A stretch of DNA of 64,000 nt from Paludibacteraceae bacterium (GTDB taxonomy: Bacteria; Bacteroidota; Bacteroidia; Bacteroidales; Paludibacteraceae), in the NCBI GenBank assembly GCA_045132415.1, contig JBGUSG010000003.1, forward strand, positions 106,004 through 170,003, written 5' to 3'. Every line of letters starts with the position of its first letter. Positions within the stretch are counted from its first letter, which is position 1. The translations under genes and the position numbers were made by a program. Below the pieces are notes generated by a model, which ran no database searches, was not told the origin of the DNA, and saw only the letters and a list, made by a program, of their open reading frames with translations. This document shows positions 20,941 through 47,338 of this stretch, piece by piece.

Positions 20941-21492
20941 TTAATGAATTCCAATTAGTGGTTCGTATTTGCGAGCGAGTTCTGTCTCAAAAATCTCTTG
21001 TACAGGTATCACGTCGTATGGTAAAACTATGATGTGCAAGCGAAGTTGCAGATTCATTGCTTTTGCCCAATCATTGAGTTGCAAACCATGCGATGCTTGA
21101 TTTAGGTGATAGCCGAGATGTTGAATAACTCTGCCGACAATATGCTGCTGCACTTTGCCCACATAAAGCGTATTTTCTCTTGTTACTGCTTTTTTTAGTA
21201 CACGAGGTGTATATTTGGGCAATTGACTGACGGTTTGTTTGATTTGTTCTGCATCATAGGGCGACGTAATCTCCCAACGATACAAGCAAGGCAATTCATC
21301 TACTTCGGCTAATCGCTCAAACATCATTTTGAAAGGTGTTGAATAGCGGACATCTTCTAAGTTACGGTATTTGTCTTCGAAATCTTTGCTGTCAATTTCA
21401 AAAGACATTTCTTTTACAATACCGATCTCTGCGAGATGGTGAAAACGAGCACTGTACAAATCTGCGATTTCACGAACAAAATCTTTTTCCAT
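20941..21492 (-). CDS. hypothetical protein with GIY-YIG-like C-terminal half
   Basis: 183 aa. CLYRWEI...(~35 aa)...TLYVGKVQQHIVGRVIQHLG...ETELARKY resembles the GIY / YIG / Arg / Glu layout of GIY-YIG nucleases. The assignment is by eye only. Confidence 0.45.
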   Translation of the reverse strand: MEKDFVREIADLYSARFHHLAEIGIVKEMSFEIDSKDFEDKYRNLEDVRYSTPFKMMFERLAEVDELPCLYRWEITSPYDAEQIKQTVSQLPKYTPRVLKKAVTRENTLYVGKVQQHIVGRVIQHLGYHLNQASHGLQLNDWAKAMNLQLRLHIIVLPYDVIPVQEIFETELARKYEPLIGIH

Positions 21493-21514: not shown

Positions 21515-21748
21515 TTGATATATATACACGAAAAAGCGTGAACTTTCGTTCGCTTCAATTTGATTTTCTGAGGTTCTCGACTACCTTACTTATTCAAATC
21601 TACGCACGGAAAACTCACGCTGAAAGCATGAGCGTGCATAAACCGTACTTGAATAAGTAATGATTTCTTGAAAGTGTCGAGTTTTCAGAAAATCAAGTTT
21701 GGGCTTATAACGCTATATTAAATATGTCGGGCAACGGATCGTTGCGGA
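21515..21748 (-). ncRNA. E1: member of a structured non-coding element family (5' hairpin + ~145-nt extended hairpin + GC hairpin/T5)
   Basis: Its reverse complement aligns with 31950-32178 along the full length. Stems: TTGATTTTCTGA/TCAGAAAATCAA, CTCGAC/GTCGAG, TTACTTATTCAA/TTGAATAAGTAA. Terminator AGCGAACGAAAGTTCACGCTTTTT (minus sense) at 21531-21556. No conserved ORF. Confidence 0.5.
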
Positions 21749-21806
21749 TTAACTATAAACTATGAGTGATGAGTGATAAGTAAATTAGGGGGTTAGTATT
21801 GTTTGG

Positions 21807-22655
21807 TTATTTCAATTCTTTTGCTTTAGTATCTTCTATTGGATGGATGTAATCACTTGCTTTATCAGGTGAGATAATGCTATGCCCTAAGCCTTGCTCA
21901 ATATTCTCGCGAGCAACACGCGCAGCATTACCTCCTTGCTTCGCTACACGCTGATTAGCAGCCATACCTTTAGGGTTGTATTGCTTAGAGAATTCCGCCG
22001 TAGCTGCCTCTGCCAAAGTATTAAGAGCCAACTCCAGATTAGTCATATTATCACGCAAGTTTTCTTTCCTCAATCCTTTGAATCGCTTATATTCACGTGT
22101 TGTCTTACCACTCCATGCTTTCGTGATAATATCTGTTAGCATAGCAAATTCTTTGCCTTCTTGTATTCCTCCACGCTTCCACTCATCAGTCAACTCTTTG
22201 CGTGTTTCAATGGATTTTACACGTTGGTTAATCCAATTGTCAGAATATCCTAATCTACGATAATCAGCAATAGCTTGGTGGATACTGAGTTCTGGGTCTT
22301 GCAATTGATCTATACGCTGACGTCCTATTTCAGCAAGCCATAACTTAAATGGTTCAGCTTTTTTGGAAGGGATAGATTGTATCAAACGCAGAATTTGCTC
22401 AGTATCAGCCACATCTGTAAGGTATTTCTTTCCATCTGCAGCGGGCATTTTCAGTTGACTACAATTTGTAGCCAACTCACTACCTTCCTTTTTTAGGCGA
22501 GTCTTAAGAACGCTCCAGTACTTTCGAGCATTAGGCGTATCTGTCAGTACTTGCACTACATCAACGACCGAGAAGAAATACTTCTCCTGTTCGTCATCCC
22601 AAATCACGCGTATTTGGCGATCTTCGAATAACTGTATAGCATTATATTCTTGCAT
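21807..22655 (-). CDS. Bro-N domain protein, DinD-like (DNA-damage-inducible protein D family)
   Basis: 282 aa. The N-terminus FEDRQIRVIWDDEQEKYFFSVVDVVQVLTD...ARKYW is a Bro-N domain, and the overall length and order match E. coli DinD-type proteins. Confidence 0.7.
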   Translation of the reverse strand: MQEYNAIQLFEDRQIRVIWDDEQEKYFFSVVDVVQVLTDTPNARKYWSVLKTRLKKEGSELATNCSQLKMPAADGKKYLTDVADTEQILRLIQSIPSKKAEPFKLWLAEIGRQRIDQLQDPELSIHQAIADYRRLGYSDNWINQRVKSIETRKELTDEWKRGGIQEGKEFAMLTDIITKAWSGKTTREYKRFKGLRKENLRDNMTNLELALNTLAEAATAEFSKQYNPKGMAANQRVAKQGGNAARVARENIEQGLGHSIISPDKASDYIHPIEDTKAKELK

Positions 22656-29751: not shown

Positions 29752-29823
29752 GATGGTTTGTTGCAGATGCCAATCCATTAAAAAAGAGAAACGATAACGA
29801 AACACCTTCATTATCGCCTCCAG

Positions 29824-30212
29824 TGGAGATAGCGGGATTCGAACCCGCGTCCAAACAAGGAACCAATATGCTTTCTACACGCTTATCTTGGCCTTAATTT
29901 TCGAGCAATGGCAAGACCCAAGCCACCAACCATTGCCTTATCTGCTGTTATCTCATTCTTGCATCGCAGCCTGCAACAACCAGTCCCGATATTTCCGCAC
30001 CGCTTAACCCATTCAGCCTCTGGACGTTGGCTTGGAGCGATGTCTCGGTTCAGCACCTTGTGCCGAAACTAGGCGAATCTACTATACTTCGATTACGCAG
30101 CGAGAGCTACAGTATTGTTGCCAGTTATAATGGCGAACCCGATTAACGAGCGGTGTTCATGCTCGGCGTGCTTACATACCTGTTCTACCTGCTGTCAAAA
30201 CCAAATATCCCC
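29824..30212 (-). ncRNA. ssrA: tmRNA (SsrA)
   Basis: 5' GGGGATATTTGGTTTTGACAGCAGG... and 3' ...CGCGGGTTCGAATCCCGCTATCTCCA form the tRNA-like domain. Predicted tag frame: GGC AAC AAT ACT GTA GCT CTC GCT GCG TAA = (G)NNTVALAA. A -7 box TACTTTTG lies ~25 nt upstream (minus). Confidence 0.85.
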
Positions 30213-31881: not shown

Positions 31882-31889
31882 TACCTTTG
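31882..31889 (+). promoter_or_regulatory. -7 box TACCTTTG driving E2
   Basis: GCGTATGTGCATTTTTTGTTGTACCTTTGCAACG, the same cassette as at recJ, lpxC and rpsO. Confidence 0.65.
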
Positions 31890-31949: not shown

Positions 31950-32178
31950 GCAACGCATAGCCGTTGCCCGACATATTTAATATAGCGTTATAAGCCAAAC
32001 TTGAGTTTTTGAAACTTCGACACTTTTAAAAACTTATTATTTGTTCAAGTCACGGTTTATGCACGCTCACGTTATCAGCGTGAGTTTTCTGTGCGTAAAT
32101 TTGAACAAATAAGGTAGTCGAAGACCTCAAAAACTCAAATGAAGCGAACGAAAGTTCACGCTTTTTGTATGTATATAT
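31950..32178 (+). ncRNA. E2: second copy of the structured element family
   Basis: P1 GCAACG-CATAGC-CGTTGC. Stems TTGAGTTTTTGA/TCAAAAACTCAA, CTTCGAC/GTCGAAG and TTATTTGTTCAA/TTGAACAAATAA. Apical CTCACG-TTATCAG-CGTGAG. Terminator AGCGAACGAAAGTTCACGCTTTTT at 32143-32166. Confidence 0.55.
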
Positions 32179-32374
32179 GAAATACGTAAACAATAGATAC
32201 GTAGTATAAAGATATCATCATGATCTAAACAAAAAAAGATTCTGTACAAAAAAAGTATAAATTATTGATAAACAATTGTTGTAGTCATCCTTTTCTGTAC
32301 AAAAGCTAAAAAGTTTTTATATATCAAAAAAAAGCAGTACCTTTGCAAGAAGTTTCAGAAAACAAGATTCGCTT

Positions 32375-33841
32375 ATGAAAAGAAATCTAATTGTATTATT
32401 GGCATTGTTGATATTCGTGACCTACGTGCCCATTTGGGCGCAGTCTATCACATTAACCAAAGAGTTTCAGACGATGCCGAATGTAAAAGCCTCAGAGGTT
32501 TATCGCAACCAGTTTGGCAATTACGAGATTGTGGGTGCAGATGATCCGTTCCCATATGTGGTTATTCGTATAGGTTTGGATGGCAACAGCAAGGATATAG
32601 AGGATGCTAAGGAGCGATTGAATATTTCGCTGGGGCGAATGGTGAAAGTGGAGAGTGTGTTTAAAGAAGCGAGAAATGAGTTGCTATTTCTCATTCCTTC
32701 GCGTGCTCGCTATATTGAAATGCAATGCAATGGCGAGTGTTTGCCACAAATGATGTTTGATAGTTTGGTACATCTGCAATCTAATACCGTATTTTATGGT
32801 CGCGTGCACTACGTTATGCAAGACGATATGCGCGATCCAAACCAGTTAAAGACATATCCGTTTGCTCTGACCGTAGAACCTGCTGAGGCAAAAGTAGAGA
32901 TGCGTTCGGGGTTTATGACGGAGGAGTGGAAATTGGAGAATGGTACTGCGCAGCAATTGTTGATAGAAGGAACATACTACTATACCATTACGGCAGAGGA
33001 TTATAAGACAGCCGAAGGGTCTTTTGTGGTGGATTCGTTGCACAAAGACACCGCGATAGCTTTGGTGCCCAAATTTGGTTGGTTGAGCGTGAAGAGTGAT
33101 AGTGCAGACTTGTCAGGTTTGTCGCTTGAGGTGGAGTATTTGAAGCAGAAACAAGTGGTAGAATTGCCATTGGAGAATGAGAAATGTGGATTGGGGCAGT
33201 ATGTGCTGACCATAAAGAAACCGAAATGCCATACTTGGAAGAAGAAAGTGGTGGTGCATGCAGGAGAACATGTGGAGGTGTATCCTGCGCCCCTGAAAAA
33301 GGAGTATCGTCATAATACTTTTGTGTTGGCTGAGGGTGGATATGCGATGAATCCTGCATGGAGCGTAGGTTTGATGGCAGGACAAGTGTATGGTGAGGTG
33401 ACGCGAGTAATGGGAATAGGTTGGTATGTGAAAGGTCGTTCTAACTTCCAAACAACAAAAGCGATAGAGGGACTGCATATCAATAACGGAGGATTGATTG
33501 GAATAACAAGTCCGTTGATGCCAGCGTACACGGGAAGAACGCGTTTTACGGAATGGAATCTGAATGCAGGTGTAGTATTGAACTTCCTGAACAAGAAAGC
33601 GCTTAATCTCCACAAGAACAGTATGTTTGGTCTGTATGCGGGTTTGGGATATGGCCAATATACTCGTTATTGGGAGATTGTTGATGGGCGGTGGTTTGAA
33701 TATGCGCCAACATCTGTTCAAGGATTGAGTGTAGGCGGTGGTGTGATAGGAAGTATAAAAGGACTGACAATCAGTGCAGGTGTGAACACCATTATGGCAA
33801 AATACATGGAGATTGAAATGGGATTGGGATGGACATTTTAA
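32375..33841 (+). CDS. secreted hypothetical protein (PEGA-like middle region, beta-barrel-like C-terminus)
   Basis: 488 aa. Signal peptide MKRNLIVLLALLIFVTYVPIWAQ, GTYYYTITAEDYKTAEGSFVV (PEGA-like) and a Gly/aromatic-rich C-terminal third. Own -7 box at 32338-32345. Confidence 0.6.
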   Translation: MKRNLIVLLALLIFVTYVPIWAQSITLTKEFQTMPNVKASEVYRNQFGNYEIVGADDPFPYVVIRIGLDGNSKDIEDAKERLNISLGRMVKVESVFKEARNELLFLIPSRARYIEMQCNGECLPQMMFDSLVHLQSNTVFYGRVHYVMQDDMRDPNQLKTYPFALTVEPAEAKVEMRSGFMTEEWKLENGTAQQLLIEGTYYYTITAEDYKTAEGSFVVDSLHKDTAIALVPKFGWLSVKSDSADLSGLSLEVEYLKQKQVVELPLENEKCGLGQYVLTIKKPKCHTWKKKVVVHAGEHVEVYPAPLKKEYRHNTFVLAEGGYAMNPAWSVGLMAGQVYGEVTRVMGIGWYVKGRSNFQTTKAIEGLHINNGGLIGITSPLMPAYTGRTRFTEWNLNAGVVLNFLNKKALNLHKNSMFGLYAGLGYGQYTRYWEIVDGRWFEYAPTSVQGLSVGGGVIGSIKGLTISAGVNTIMAKYMEIEMGLGWTF

Positions 33842-33855
33842 AAAGGAGAAATAAT

Positions 33856-35103
33856 ATGAAAAAGATATATCAATATATAGTTGTTGGACTGTTGGGCTGC
33901 CTCATGATGGCTGCTTGTCAGCGTGAAGAATTGCCCCCATTAACGGAAGTGATGATCGATAGTTTGGTCATTGTACCTGCGTATGTGGATGCAGAAGTAG
34001 TGTGTAAGTTTCGCTCTAGTGTTACGATAGAAAATGCTATGCTCTTTTTATCAACAGATTCCAATTTCACTAGTGTAGAAAAGATAATGTTGAATAGGCA
34101 ACCGTACAACCAATTCACGGGAAATTTGACTAACCTTATTGATGGAATGACTTATTATGTTCGCTTTAGAATCTCAAATACTTGGTCAGAGCTGCTTGTT
34201 GATGAAACAACGGAGTTTACGACTTATCCTATTTCTACACCAGTTATGGATGCTACAGTAATGACGGATCTTACTTTCAATAGTGCTATCATCAATAGTA
34301 AGATTATACGAAGCGGCGGCAAAGACGTTTCTCGTCGTGGTGTGGTTTATGGTGTAGCAACTAACCCAACAATAGAAAATGCCACAAAAATAGAAATTTT
34401 TGATTCAAAGGCATCTTTCTCGTGTTTCTTGGGTGGTTTGGATAAAAACGTAGTATATTACGCACGACCATTTGCAGCAAACGAATTGGGTGTGTCGTAT
34501 GGTGAGGAAGTATGTTTTGAAGTAGATACTTTGTGGGATGGCTATGATTTAGGATTGAGTGTGAAATGGGCACATATAAATATTGGAGCTACTTATCCAG
34601 AAGAAGCAGGTGATTATTTTGCATGGGGCGAAACCGAACCTAAAATAGAATATACCTGGGCTAATTATAAATTTTGCAATGGTTCTCCTGGAGGTATATC
34701 AAAATATAGCACTCGTGTAGATAGTTTAGAGGTACTTGAACCTCAGGACGATGCTGCAACTGTAAATTGGGGTGGAAAATGGCGCATGCCAACGAATGCG
34801 GAGATAAGTGAATTATTAGAAAAATGTAAATGGCAATGGAAGGAAATAAATGGAGTTGCTGGATATATGGTATCTTCAAATCGACTAGGTGGTAAAAGTA
34901 TATTTATCCCTGTCGCAGGACATAAAGAGGGTAGTAAGCTAATCGAATACAACAGTTATGGTGCTTATTGGGGGAATACGCTCATGTCGAATACAGATGC
35001 TGGATACTTAAGGATGCTCCCTAAGGATTATTCTCCAACCGCTGACAGGATGAATGCTTCGCGTTACCAAGGAATGCCTGTGCGTGCGGTTTGTCCGAAA
35101 TAA
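33856..35103 (+). CDS. lipoprotein with DUF1566/Lcl-like C-terminal domain
   Basis: MKKIYQYIVVGLLGCLMMAAC lipobox (start moved from 33829). The C-terminus FAWGETEP...WGGKWRMPTNAEISELL...YWGNT resembles the DUF1566 / Fibrobacter-paralogous domain. Confidence 0.6.
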   Translation: MKKIYQYIVVGLLGCLMMAACQREELPPLTEVMIDSLVIVPAYVDAEVVCKFRSSVTIENAMLFLSTDSNFTSVEKIMLNRQPYNQFTGNLTNLIDGMTYYVRFRISNTWSELLVDETTEFTTYPISTPVMDATVMTDLTFNSAIINSKIIRSGGKDVSRRGVVYGVATNPTIENATKIEIFDSKASFSCFLGGLDKNVVYYARPFAANELGVSYGEEVCFEVDTLWDGYDLGLSVKWAHINIGATYPEEAGDYFAWGETEPKIEYTWANYKFCNGSPGGISKYSTRVDSLEVLEPQDDAATVNWGGKWRMPTNAEISELLEKCKWQWKEINGVAGYMVSSNRLGGKSIFIPVAGHKEGSKLIEYNSYGAYWGNTLMSNTDAGYLRMLPKDYSPTADRMNASRYQGMPVRAVCPK

Positions 35104-35209
35104 AGTGTATGAATATCATGTTAGAGTGGAAAAGAAAGCAGAAATTGCTGACTTTTCCACTTTTTTTGTAAAAATACTCTCAGCACTTGCATATGTGCAT
35201 TTTTTTTTG

Positions 35210-36051: not shown

Positions 36052-36216
36052 GACCGCCCTGCGGGCTGTTAGAAGTTAGATCGCCACATGGTGGCTGTTA
36101 GACTCCAGAAATCTAACAGTAAGCAAAGCGGAAAAATCGTTCGAGCGAATGCGAGATAAGAACGATCTAACAATGAAATGGTCTAACAATGACAGTGGTC
36201 TAACAGCGAAGCGGTC
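36052..36216. repeat. palindromic element A1 (GTTAGA/TCTAAC family), rseC|rnfB junction
   Basis: The left arm has CTGTTAGA-type words, each followed by a small GC hairpin (GCCC-TGC-GGGC, GCCAC-ATG-GTGGC). The right arm has 4 x (G)TCTAACA words. The termini GACCGC...GCGGTC are complementary. Confidence 0.85.
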
Positions 36217-44035: not shown

Positions 44036-44653
44036 ATGTTTATCATTGGCATAGCGGGCGGTACTGGCTCGGGTAAAACAACGGTAGTCAAAAAACTGAT
44101 AGAGCGCCTTCCTAAAGGCGAAGTAGTGGTTATTCCTCAGGATTCCTATTACAAGGATAGTAGTGATGTGCCTGCGGAGGAGCGCCAAAACATCAATTTC
44201 GATCACCCTGATGCGTTTGAGTGGCCATTGCTTGCAAAGCATATTGAGCAACTGAAGCAAGGTCACGCCGTAGAGCAACCAATCTATGACTACATTACCT
44301 CTTCGCGTCAGAAGGAGACTATCCATGTTGAGCCTCGCGAAATCATTATCGTAGAGGGAATTATGGCATTGCGCGATTATCATCTCCGCCAGCAGATGGA
44401 TTTGAAGATTTTTGTGGATGCAGATGCAGATGACCGTCTGATTCGTGTTGTGCAACGTGATATTGTGGAGCGTGGACGTACTGTAGAGGCTGTGATGGAG
44501 CGTTATCAGCGTGTACTCAAGCCTATGCATGAGCAGTTTATTGAGACATGCAAACGCTATGCGGACGTGATTATTCCTCAAGGCGGACACAACAATGCTG
44601 CTATCAATATGCTGGTGAAATTCATCAAGCAAGAGCTCAAAGAGAAGAAATAA
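44036..44653 (+). CDS. udk: uridine kinase
   Basis: MFIIGIAGGTGSGKTT P-loop, FDHPDAF and IIVEGI. The listed TTG 43991 lies in the -7 box TAACTTTG (43987-43994), so the start is moved to ATG 44036. Confidence 0.9.
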   Translation: MFIIGIAGGTGSGKTTVVKKLIERLPKGEVVVIPQDSYYKDSSDVPAEERQNINFDHPDAFEWPLLAKHIEQLKQGHAVEQPIYDYITSSRQKETIHVEPREIIIVEGIMALRDYHLRQQMDLKIFVDADADDRLIRVVQRDIVERGRTVEAVMERYQRVLKPMHEQFIETCKRYADVIIPQGGHNNAAINMLVKFIKQELKEKK

Positions 44654-44790
44654 GACCGCCTTCGGCTGTTAGACCACTTCGTTGTTAGACCGCCCTTCGG
44701 GCTGAGAGAAGTTAGACTTCTATAATCTAACAGCGACAAAGTCGCGGTCTAACAGTGCAACGGTCTAATATCTAATAGCAAAGCGGTCTA
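44654..44790. repeat. palindromic element A4, udk|chrA junction
   Basis: GACCGCCTTCGGCTGTTAGACCACTTCGTTGTTAGACCGCCCTTCGGGCTGAGAGAAGTTAGAC...TCTAACAGCGACAAAGTCGCGGTCTAACAGTGCAACGGTCTAATATCTAATAGCAAAGCGGTCTAATA. It starts 1 nt after the udk stop and ends 2 nt before the chrA ATG. Confidence 0.85.
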
Positions 44791-44792
44791 AT

Positions 44793-45341
44793 ATGCTTTA
44801 TTTTCAGCTCTTTTGGACATATCTCAAGATTGGTACCTTCACGATAGGTGGAGGGTATGTGATGTTGTCTATGATTGAGCATGAGGTGGTGGAGCGCAAG
44901 GGGTGGATTGACCGTGAGGAGTTCCTGAATATGATTGCTTTGGCACAAGCTGCGCCTGGGTTGATAGCGGTGAATTCGGCAATATTCATTGGTTGGCGCA
45001 TTGGCGGATGGCGTGGTGTGATAGCCACCGTATTGGGTGCGGTATTGCCTTCGTTCTTGATAATCTTGGGGATAGCGCTGGTGTTTCAGGATTATAAGGA
45101 CTTGCCTGCTGTAGAGGCGGTGTTTAAAGGTATTCGCCCTGCGGTAGTGGCTCTGATTGCTGCTCCGCTCTGCAAGATGGCGCACAGCGCCAAGATTACT
45201 TGGGCAACGGCTATCATCCCTATTGCGGGTGCGTTGCTAATTTGGTTGGGTGGGTTGTCGCCTGTATGGATAATCTTCGTTACCGTCGTAGCAACCCTAC
45301 TATACACCTACCTCAAAGAACGAAAATCCTCTAAACACTAA
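44793..45341 (+). CDS. chrA: chromate transporter family protein (half-size, 1 of 2)
   Basis: 182 aa. LKIGTFTIGGGYVMLSMIEHEVV... is a CHR-family signature. Confidence 0.8.
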   Translation: MLYFQLFWTYLKIGTFTIGGGYVMLSMIEHEVVERKGWIDREEFLNMIALAQAAPGLIAVNSAIFIGWRIGGWRGVIATVLGAVLPSFLIILGIALVFQDYKDLPAVEAVFKGIRPAVVALIAAPLCKMAHSAKITWATAIIPIAGALLIWLGGLSPVWIIFVTVVATLLYTYLKERKSSKH

Positions 45342-46280: not shown

Positions 46281-47024
46281 TTATTTTATTTCTTGACCTT
46301 GGATGGTATAAATATTCTTTTCGTTCTCTATTAACACTTGAGCATCGTGGATATACTTACGGGCATTGCGACGAGGGGCATAAACTTCGTTAATCGCTGT
46401 AGCTTCGCCATTACCTGGGAGAGCATAAATATCATAATCATATCTGCCATCATCATCTTGATTATTCTCTACTATTAATTTATATCGTTCATCAACTTTT
46501 ACTAAATAGCAAAAAGATTGGTCAATACTAGCATAGTTTTTACAGGTATATGGCATAGATGTTAGAATGTTGCCATCTTGAGAGATGACCTTAATTTCTC
46601 CTTTTCTTGGGTCTCCATAGTAACCAACTTCGGTTACTGTTCTACAAATATAAGCAAACTTAGAATCGGTAGTGAAAATATTTTTGGCAATGAAATATGG
46701 TCCTCTATATGTGTTTCGTCCAAAAGTTTGTTCTACATTCACAGAAAACTCTAACGAATAATCGTTTAAATTATACACATTGGTAAAAACAGTCGGATCA
46801 TATTGTGCATTACCATCATCAGCAAACTCGGTTAGAATAAGATAATCCCCACCGATGACAAAAGGATAAAATTCTTCAACTAACGGAAAAACTTTTACAT
46901 TGCGTCCAAAATTATATGAACTGATGCCGTCCTGCAAATCGGTTAGTGTGTGTTCCAATGTGATTTGAGCGTGAGATAATAGTGTAGCAAAAAGGAATGC
47001 TACCAAGGCGAATAATTTTTTCAT
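46281..47024 (-). CDS. secreted hypothetical protein with T9SS-type C-terminal tail
   Basis: Signal peptide MKKLFALVAFLFATLLSHAQ (start moved from 47057). C-terminus ...AQVLIENEKNIYTIQGQEIK resembles Por/T9SS sorting-domain ends. AT-rich gene. Confidence 0.6.
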   Translation of the reverse strand: MKKLFALVAFLFATLLSHAQITLEHTLTDLQDGISSYNFGRNVKVFPLVEEFYPFVIGGDYLILTEFADDGNAQYDPTVFTNVYNLNDYSLEFSVNVEQTFGRNTYRGPYFIAKNIFTTDSKFAYICRTVTEVGYYGDPRKGEIKVISQDGNILTSMPYTCKNYASIDQSFCYLVKVDERYKLIVENNQDDDGRYDYDIYALPGNGEATAINEVYAPRRNARKYIHDAQVLIENEKNIYTIQGQEIK

Positions 47025-47071
47025 AAACTTACATGTCTTTTGGGACATTGGCTCCAAATGCCCTATTGCTA

Positions 47072-47328
47072 TAAATATACAAAAAGCGTGGAACCTTACT
47101 TTTGCTTATTCTTAACTATTGAGGTTCTGGTAAACCTATTCCCCAAGAATAAACAATAACGCCCACGCTGATATGTACAACGCGCACTATCAGCGCGGTA
47201 GAATACATACCAATGAGCATTTATTGCTGTTCTTGCCTTGGGGGAAGGAAATTTACCAGATTTCAATAGTTCCAAAACAAGCGCTAATAAACGCTTTTTA
47301 TTTATGTCTGCAAACTTTTGGTTTGCGG
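47072..47328 (-). ncRNA. E3: divergent third member of the E family
   Basis: Minus strand: -7 box TACCTTTG (47331-47338), P1 GCAAAC-CAAAA-GTTTGC (47310-47326), and an extended hairpin at 47111-47272 (AACTATTGA/TCAATAGTT, TCTGGTAAA/TTTACCAGA, CCCCAAG/CTTGGGG, CTGATA/TATCAG). The 3' end AAGCAAAAGTAAGGTTCCACGCTTTTTGTATAT is homologous to the E1/E2 terminator but has a weaker stem. Confidence 0.45.
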
Positions 47329-47330
47329 TG

Positions 47331-47338
47331 CAAAGGTA
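47331..47338 (-). promoter_or_regulatory. -7 box TACCTTTG driving E3
   Basis: Minus strand TTTTTCACTACCTTTGCACCGCAAACC. P1 starts about 4 nt after the box. Confidence 0.6.

Follow-up and report, generated by a model that had tools for sequence, protein, structure and literature searches.

A repeated Paludibacteraceae RNA element with two mutually exclusive conserved folds, a candidate attenuator-type leader

What does a non-coding element of about 230 nt do that one stretch of bacterial DNA carries three times, on both strands? We addressed this question for element E in 64,000 nt of contig JBGUSG010000003.1 from a Paludibacteraceae bacterium (the window; positions are window positions unless a locus number precedes them). 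An initial annotation of this DNA had described two of the copies, E1 (21515–21748, minus strand) and E2 (31950–32178, plus strand), as aligning base for base, with most positions identical, and as preserved by selection on a folded nucleic acid. We find that E is a genuine structured RNA family, whose four segments have two conserved and mutually exclusive ways of pairing, one of them with a terminator helix. On the evidence of the sequences we lean, if only slightly, towards reading E as a new family of cis-acting attenuator-type leader RNAs that would serve as conditional terminators for the following gene, because this terminator/antiterminator fold logic lies in the leader of a co-oriented gene that usually has no promoter of its own.

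The copies of E and the rod fold

E1 and E2 are 87.5% identical over 224 nt in the blastn alignment, and the predicted fold of each begins with a 5′ hairpin, continues with an extended hairpin of ~145 nt and closes with a short 3′ hairpin before T5, with folding-energy z-scores against dinucleotide shuffles of −7.35 (E1) and −7.48 (E2); the claimed likeness and common architecture were thus both borne out. The five pair-preserving double substitutions that had been read from the two copies are all present in our alignment and pair table: T-A to G-C and C-G to T-A in the outer stem, C-G to T-A in the second stem, and C-G to T-A and A-T to G-C in the third. The third copy, E3, which the annotation had only mentioned, was located at ~47078–47330 on the minus strand; it has the architecture of E1 and E2 (z −8.7) and is strongly diverged, with a blastn match of only 56 nt and 30.7–49.8 bits in the covariance model of the main type (R1). 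A scan of the 64-kb window with the covariance model gave no further copies beyond E1–E3.

We retrieved relatives from a species-representative genome collection with a gapped pattern made from the bases common to E1–E3, which matched at least 80 loci. The search for copies in related Bacteroidales that had been proposed at the outset thereby yielded at least 79 further loci. Among the matches listed, the loci come from 68 assemblies, with at least three E loci in one assembly, and the hosts are nearly all Paludibacteraceae or unclassified Bacteroidales metagenome-assembled genomes from the gut of cattle, sheep, goat, deer, yak, buffalo and horse, together with one human-gut Rikenellaceae genome and one Porphyromonadaceae genome. 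A match in a bin labelled as a euryarchaeote (L057) was discarded as a chance match to the pattern without a covariance-model hit. Neither phage GenBank records (searched by blastn) nor IMG/VR (searched by pattern) held a match to E, and the closest contigs to the window are themselves from Paludibacteraceae, with 96% and 92% identity over ~2 kb. From the retrieved loci we assembled a main-type alignment of 67 distinct cores (A3) and a second alignment that adds divergent members (A5).

For the 67 main-type copies, RNAalifold predicts a long rod of 52 pairs. Standard pairs occupy 98.7% of the rod cells, compared with 89.4% in shuffled alignments and 26–46% when the partners are slid, and 19 pairs carry double changes, with up to 4–6 pair types at a position. 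Double-change cells number 305 against 86 ± 6.5 after shuffling, a value that none of 500 shuffles reached, and with the divergent members included (A5) 94.3% of cells remain paired and 30 of the 52 pairs show double changes. Three helix segments of the rod are hypervariable yet paired, with 21, 8 and 40 variants, of which the 67 copies show 55 combinations; at the apex, 55 nt are close to invariant, stems included. These values agree with the contention that E is a selected fold and not a decaying duplication. Since G-U cells (352) far exceed A-C cells (11), and since R1 scores E2 at 219.8 bits on the given strand and 13.4 bits on the opposite one, the fold belongs to the given strand.

The main-type copies contain no conserved open reading frame (ORF), as had been noted for the window copies. 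An ATG in the apical stem would open a peptide of 7 aa in 22 copies and of 17 aa in others (range 5–37 aa), and we rejected it as a small ORF or leader peptide, given that the frame is broken by 1-nt changes in loop length and that the ATG is absent from 11 copies. An extension of the basal helix P1 by AU-rich flanks (ACAUAU with UAUAUAC) was dropped, being not conserved across copies. Nor does E belong to a known RNA class, in line with the initial assessment, and this includes the tmRNA, 6S, SRP, RNase P, T-box and riboswitch families of Rfam: Rfam 15 at the gathering threshold finds only one tmRNA (29821–30212, minus strand) and four tRNAs in the whole window, searches with E ≤ 10 at E1 and E3 return only chance-level hits of 12–17 bits, 18 related loci give nothing at E, and we found no described motif in the literature that corresponds to it.

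A second fold made from the same segments

The description of E as a single extended hairpin covers only half of its structure: the rod is real, and a second, mutually exclusive conserved fold holds the real terminator. One part of this second fold is visible in the rod as a 5′ bulge of ~10–14 nt, which we call the decoy. In sequence the decoy closely repeats the outer-helix 3′ strand, which makes it complementary to the outer-helix 5′ strand, with which it co-varies from copy to copy; duplexes of decoys with their own partners have a mean energy of −8.65 kcal mol−1 compared with −6.41 ± 0.21 kcal mol−1 for permuted partners (z = −10.6, reached in none of 5000 permutations). For 60 of the 67 copies, the nascent transcript has the resulting hairpin A in its minimum-energy fold, and the E3-type copies have a counterpart of other sequence (CUUGUUUUGG with CCAARGCAAG).

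RNAalifold on 13 E3-type copies returns a three-domain fold and not the rod, and it was from this fold that we recognised a scheme of four segments, which is also valid for the main type. Each segment has two partners. Segment 1 (AGCGUUAUAAGCC) pairs with segment 4 in the rod, as helix P1, or with segment 2 (13 bp with one bulge); segment 2 (GGUUUAUGCACGCU) pairs with segment 3 in the apical hairpin of the rod or with segment 1; segment 3 (AGCGUGAGUUUUC) pairs with segment 2 in that hairpin or with segment 4, forming 13 contiguous base pairs that are followed by the U-run; and segment 4 (GAAAGUUCACGCU with UUUU) pairs with segment 1 in P1 or with segment 3. Hairpin A lies inside helix 1:2 in the alternative fold. 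When 3:4 is enforced, this fold results in its entirety, at a cost of 15.8 ± 3.2 kcal mol−1 in the main type and 5.0 ± 3.2 kcal mol−1 in the E3-type, and over the 67 copies 94% of its cells are paired, compared with 20–51% in slid controls. E thus combines two mutually exclusive conserved folds, of which one contains a terminator.

The helix at the centre of this terminator is kept across lineages. In ten copies, which represent at least four lineages (E1, E2, E3, L093, L060, L065, L008, L078, L081 and L068b), the 3:4 duplex has an energy of −16 to −24 kcal mol−1, compared with −8 to −11 kcal mol−1 for shuffled partners. Its extension differs in sequence between lineages while complementarity is kept and the U-run always comes next: UUUUC pairs with GAAAG in the main type, CA with UG in L060, GCUUUUGUU with AACAAAGC in L065, and CCUUGUU with AACAAG in L068b. 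The 3:4 stem has the form of an intrinsic terminator, in that its 13 contiguous pairs end at the first U of UUUUU; its ‘loop’ of ~65 nt, which is partly paired, is atypical. The annotation had assigned the 3′ end to a local GC hairpin plus TTTTT. A short hairpin followed by T5 is indeed present, but it fails as a terminator on the E strand in both stem and spacing. Its inner pairs are inconsistent between variants, and its bases are those of the 3′ arm of the 13-bp helix with the 3′ arm of the apical hairpin.

In E1, whose core runs from ATAGCGT to the T-run at 21528–21717 on the minus strand (217.8 bits in R1), segment 1 (AGCGTTATAAGCC, 21702–21714) can face two partners, segment 4 (P1 of the rod) or segment 2 (alternative fold). 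In the outer helix H3, the 5′ strand (TTGATTTTCTGA, 21685–21696) pairs with 21560–21571 in the rod or with the decoy in the early hairpin A, and the decoy (CTTTCAAGAAATCA, 21661–21674) bulges out of the rod and serves the alternative fold as the 3′ strand of hairpin A. Segment 2 (GGTTTATGCACGCT, 21631–21644) makes up the 5′ side of the apical hairpin or pairs with segment 1, with a duplex energy of −15.3 kcal mol−1 versus −5.8 kcal mol−1 shuffled; segment 3 (AGCGTGAGTTTTC, 21609–21621) is the 3′ arm of the apical hairpin or the 5′ arm of the terminator; and segment 4 with its T5 run (GAAAGTTCACGCT, 21531–21547) supplies the terminator 3′ arm and U-tract, the 3:4 duplex having −18.4 kcal mol−1 versus −9.3 kcal mol−1 shuffled. 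All of these features lie on the minus strand. The E2 core (31981–32169, plus strand) comprises segment 1 at 31984–31996, the H3 5′ strand at 32001–32012, the decoy at 32023–32036, segment 2 at 32054–32067, segment 3 at 32077–32089, segment 4 at 32150–32162 and the T-run at 32162–32166. The divergent E3-type core of E3 (47078–47298, minus strand), which also folds, comprises segment 1 at 47283–47297, the 5′ strand of hairpin A at 47272–47281, the decoy at 47232–47241, segment 2 at 47217–47227, segment 3 at 47161–47169, segment 4 at 47085–47095 and the T-run at 47081–47085. The core is preceded by a 5′ hairpin that varies in sequence from copy to copy, namely GCAACG-ATC-CGTTGC, followed by a conserved GACATA, in E1 (21731–21745, minus), GCAACG-CATAGC-CGTTGC in E2 (31950–31967, plus) and GCAAAC-CAAAA-GTTTGC in E3 (47310–47326, minus).

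The invariance seen in segments 3 and 4 and in the 5′ motif is partly a product of retrieval, which relied on a set pattern (TCAGCGTGRG, ACCTCA and CACGCTTTTT) and on a regular expression for the 5′ motif. A scan of metagenomes for a pattern drawn from the 5′ half, performed to counter this ascertainment bias, returned only one locus, L081. Because pattern retrieval is biased, we also retrieved E3-type copies through the protein encoded after E3, taking homologues of 60–96% identity together with their flanks. An E3-type element is present at 10 of the 11 distinct loci obtained in this way, and such elements are kept before homologues of this one gene whose proteins are as little as 64% identical. 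In public gene calls, small ORFs are annotated across E3-type elements, of 94 aa in L086 (1145–1429), 97 aa in L095 (1199–1492) and 51/35 aa in L093 (1117–1353); these calls are probably spurious, because the E3-type sequence is a conserved structured RNA.

Genes and promoters around E

The nearest downstream gene is co-oriented with E in 68 of 69 evaluable copies, at a median distance of ~62 nt, and the Bacteroidetes −7 promoter box TAnnTTTG is absent from 62 of 68 E-to-gene spacers and present in 6. E therefore mostly stands on the same strand as the next gene with no promoter box between them, E2 being an exception. The initial remark that the next gene on the same strand encodes an accessory or secreted protein is in keeping with this arrangement: 47 of 68 downstream proteins have a signal-peptide-like N-terminus by our own heuristic, 19 of 68 are BspA-type leucine-rich repeat (LRR) proteins, and others carry Listeria-Bacteroides repeats, Big_2 domains or sorting domains of the type IX secretion system (T9SS). 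Upstream, the neighbouring gene is co-oriented in 51 of 68 copies and often small and accessory (toxin-antitoxin-like, DUF3990/DUF3791-like or Bro-N, as read from the termini). Copies with a divergent upstream gene have a TAnnTTTG box before E in 14 of 17 cases and those with a co-oriented one in 16 of 51, for a background of 0.7 boxes per kb per strand.

The window copies are 10–15 kb apart on both strands, amid genes for transketolase, tmRNA and glycosyltransferases. Searches with Pfam and NCBIfam assigned no families to the proteins downstream of them, and the label ‘GIY-YIG-like’ that had been given to the 183-aa protein after E1 finds no signal in either collection. E1 lies between two co-oriented genes, a Bro-N protein gene (21807–22655) and the 183-aa ORF (20941–21492), and has no TAnnTTTG box upstream. 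E2 and E3 do have one, in the form TACCTTTG at 31882–31889 (plus) and 47331–47338 (minus), respectively. The T-run of E3 is 57 nt away from the ATG of a gene for a 246-aa protein with a signal-peptide-like N-terminus (46284–47024, minus), with no promoter box between.

Two flanking stretches are conserved beyond the core. E1-type copies (E1, L024, L029, L050, L055, L079 and L080) have ~60 nt more of 5′ sequence in common, from AATACTAACCCC to ACTCATCACTCATAGTTTATAGTTAATCC (21749–21806, minus), with different genes upstream of it; this stretch has no canonical TAnnTTTG box and could hold a non-canonical promoter, and a sigma-70-like TTATCA-N16-TATAGT was flagged. At E3-type loci, the 55 nt from the U-run to the start codon are also strongly conserved (TATATTTATAC-CAACGGGGCGTTTGGAGCCAATGTCCCAAAAGACATGTAAGTTT-ATG) and contain an imperfect hairpin (47027–47070, minus), which may be a second control element, acting on translation.

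The site of E2 is orthologous and syntenic in locus L003, with flanking housekeeping DNA of 92% identity, and the genes directly behind it have been replaced: 3 kb in the window (32184–35200), encoding secreted proteins of 488 and 424 aa, versus 0.6 kb in L003 (1019–1650), encoding a 126-aa protein. Because the genes behind an orthologous E site vary, E may mark an exchangeable ‘cargo slot’, or expression slot for cargo genes. In L001, an identical 33-nt module stands on both sides of a ~1.1-kb cassette (1230–1335 and 225–262, minus) with DUF3791/DUF3990-like genes, a promoter and a terminator inside; behind the first copy of the module comes a plain terminator, behind the second comes E. The module is one instance of a small one that recurs just 5′ of many E copies, abutting GACATA, and that consists of a 4–5-bp hairpin (often CGTCN...NGACG), TTAAAY or TAAAAM, and 3–5 nt complementary to the loop in a pseudoknot topology. 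It is also found in L013, L014, L022, L027, L034, L038, L041–L045, L052, L053, L058, L066, L068 and L072, has no match in Rfam, and may be another RNA motif or else a site of recombination or insertion. At single loci, E directly follows a tRNA gene (L021:4345–4418), precedes a DUF805b RNA motif that stands before a DUF805 gene (L043:3783–3817), or lies near a SAM-II riboswitch before metK (L034:1533–1591).

A candidate fourth window copy at 44621–44812 (15 bits) was rejected as a cluster of TTAGACC/GGTCTAA repeats, a different repeat. Such words, TTAGACC(G) and (C)GGTCTAA in direct and inverted orientation, form two intergenic clusters that are unrelated to E, one at 44640–44790 (minus) with at least eight copies of the word and a fold z-score of −4.3, and one at 36165–36215 (plus), at the right edge of the stretch that differs from L003. 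By their sequence they look like arrays of protein-binding sites of the operator or iteron type.

Mechanism, rival explanations and known systems

In the mechanism that we propose, E would be transcribed from the given strand as a leader with a ~190-nt core, or ~230–250 nt with its 5′ hairpin, either from a Bacteroidetes-type promoter of its own or by transcription that reads through from an upstream accessory gene. In fold T, (i) the outer-helix 5′ strand and the decoy would pair early as hairpin A, (ii) helix 1:2 would close the 5′ domain and form the anti-antiterminator together with hairpin A, and (iii) the 13-bp helix 3:4 and the adjoining U-tract would act as intrinsic terminator and release an RNA of ~230 nt that would afterwards settle into the stable rod. 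In fold R, the ~150-nt rod, segment 3 would be locked in the apical hairpin 2:3 and segment 4 in P1 (1:4). Helix 2:3, to which 1:4 and the remainder of the rod lend stability, would be the antiterminator; it would dismantle the terminator, so RNA polymerase would read into the downstream gene, usually one for a surface or secreted protein. Fold T would be the off state and fold R the on state, with the balance between them presumably set by a factor that may be a protein, a small molecule or the kinetics of transcription itself. The proposal presupposes that E is expressed.

Several observations weigh against this proposal. The main-type rod is ~16 kcal mol−1 more stable than fold T, which would therefore need kinetic trapping or a stabilising factor, and the rod also places the 5-bp helix P1 directly before the U-run, so that it might terminate as well. 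Helices 1:2 and 3:4 are mostly invariant within the main type, in part as a result of retrieval, and their support therefore comes mainly from comparisons between lineages and from the protein-ascertained set. The gene after E2 has its own promoter, as deduced from a second TACCTTTG box (32338–32345, plus) located 30 nt before the ATG at 32375. A homologue of the E3 gene product with 79% identity has no E before its gene (L084:1157–1476, and L085), and the leader can therefore be present or absent before the same gene family; at these loci a plain TAATTTTG promoter region is found in place of E. Finally, no sensor domain or ligand can be named, and we found no aptamer-like match.

Much of the same evidence bears on the possibility that E is a free-standing family of trans-acting small RNAs (sRNAs), in which the rod is the functional part, whether by binding a protein, as a sponge or by pairing through its conserved apical loops, in which 3:4 only terminates the sRNA gene, and in which the adjacency to surface genes stems from co-duplication. 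E2 with its own promoter and terminator before a separately promoted gene would suit such an sRNA, as would the promoter box just upstream of 30 of the 68 copies with an evaluable upstream region, the near invariance of the apical 55 nt even in stems, as for a recognition surface, and the prospect that a terminated transcript, once released, would relax into the much more stable rod; multi-copy sRNA families are, moreover, known in Bacteroides (FopS, PMC11697453). Independent sRNA genes would not be expected to have a co-oriented gene ~60 nt downstream in 68 of 69 copies, mostly with no box between, a simple sRNA has no role for the co-varying decoy and helix 1:2, and no target or partner could be identified. 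We consider this explanation rather unlikely, though it deserves to be kept in mind. We regard as more doubtful still that E is an RNA processing or stability module, whose imperfect rod of ~60 bp would be cut by an RNase III-type enzyme to uncouple upstream and downstream cistrons, protective hairpins staying on both products. Intercistronic RNase III sites of phage T7 offer an analogy, E is a long imperfect duplex with conserved bulges, many copies lie between co-oriented genes (51 of 68 upstream genes), and the upstream module of L001 occurs once before a plain terminator and once before E; cleavage, however, leaves unexplained both the conserved alternative fold with its terminator helix at the U-tract and the copies that start a transcription unit.

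It is very improbable, in our estimation, that E acts at the level of DNA, be it as a miniature inverted-repeat transposable element (MITE), as an attC-like site that folds as single-stranded DNA, or as portable homology for the swapping of cassettes. The accessory character of the flanks (toxin-antitoxin-like, DUF3990-like, Bro-N and variable surface proteins), the different genes after the orthologous E2 site in L003, the L001 cassette that is bounded by the repeated 33-nt module and adjoins E, and near-identical cores with different 5′ flanks would all be accommodated by exchange of DNA. Against it stand features that belong to transcription, namely promoter boxes at a preferred upstream distance, the U-tract after a helix, and a nearly absolute orientation. 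No RYYYAAC or GTTRRRY core sites lie beside the hairpin, the copies are dispersed on both strands among housekeeping genes and form no array, the phage and viral collections held no matches, and the G-T pairs fit RNA or single-stranded DNA but not duplex DNA. We rejected an integron attC site specifically, as the hairpin flanks AGCGTTATAAG and GAAGCGAACGAAAG contain no core sites and the copies are 10–15 kb apart; the orientation of E, which 68 of 69 copies have in common with the gene that follows, is not that of a MITE (no systematic search for target-site duplications was made).

The conditional-terminator reading, which we continue to favour slightly, can be taken further in one direction, which we offer only as a tentative possibility. 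E could form a signal-responsive class of attenuators, riboswitch-like or protein-dependent, that gates a whole regulon, the gate standing before the variable surface repertoire, which comprises secreted proteins of the BspA-type LRR and other kinds, in an abundant uncultured Bacteroidales family of the herbivore gut. The rod would be its antiterminator, the co-varying decoy hairpin would time co-transcriptional folding, the loop of that hairpin would allow toehold-like access, and the released rod RNA may also act in trans. If the attenuator reading is true, E is a new regulatory RNA class and a handle on the control of the surface repertoire in uncultured rumen and hindgut Paludibacteraceae. 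With about 80 copies, extensive covariation and two folds in the same bases, the family is in any event a clean case for co-transcriptional folding and could be added to Rfam. Bacteroidota do not initiate translation on the basis of Shine-Dalgarno sequences and have unusual promoters, and to our knowledge attenuation by structured leaders has hardly been documented in this phylum.

Among known systems, HK022 put and the EAR element of Bacillus eps operons resemble E as structured leader RNAs that are followed by a terminator and precede long genes of the surface or exopolysaccharide type. They act on RNA polymerase and need no alternative fold that overlaps the terminator, and they have no sequence or Rfam similarity to E. 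attC sites and Vibrio cholerae repeats are, like E, repeated imperfect hairpins with structure conserved beyond sequence and strand-specific folding, and attC sites are likewise placed between co-oriented accessory cassettes. Unlike attC, E has no R″/R′ core sites, forms no array, is dispersed on both strands, and has a promoter before it and a U-tract behind it; the proteins scanned included no integrase, although no search was aimed at integrases.

Closer in host range are FopS and GibS of Bacteroides thetaiotaomicron, short RNAs with a single-stranded 5′ seed (R1, in that work) and a terminator hairpin, which share with E that they are paralogous Bacteroidales non-coding RNAs with sigma-ABfr-type promoters and a link to the outer surface (PMC11697453). 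FopS has, according to its paper, been deposited in Rfam (PMC11697453). E differs from FopS in its length (~190–240 nt), its dominant long hairpin, its two folds, the absence of an Rfam hit and its nearly constant position close to and co-oriented with the next gene; membership in FopS/GibS was rejected on the architecture described there (PMC11697453) and on the Rfam result.

The nearest parallel in logic is found in the attenuators of the trp type, the RAT (LicT/BglG) type and the T-box type, which have overlapping helices 1:2, 2:3 and 3:4 and a U-tract, as E does, and attenuators and riboswitch platforms share with E the position of a 5′ leader directly before the regulated gene. Unlike these, E has no leader peptide, no T-box or other Rfam signature and no recognisable aptamer; its antiterminator is a ~150-nt rod closed by a fourth pairing, 1:4; it has an additional, co-varying decoy hairpin; and it occurs in multiple copies before unrelated surface-protein genes and not in front of one metabolic operon. 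The attenuator or riboswitch-like leader is thus already known as a kind of element, and what is new here is the E family as such, its antiterminator in the shape of a rod combined with a co-varying decoy, its use in multiple copies before surface-protein genes and the clade that hosts it.

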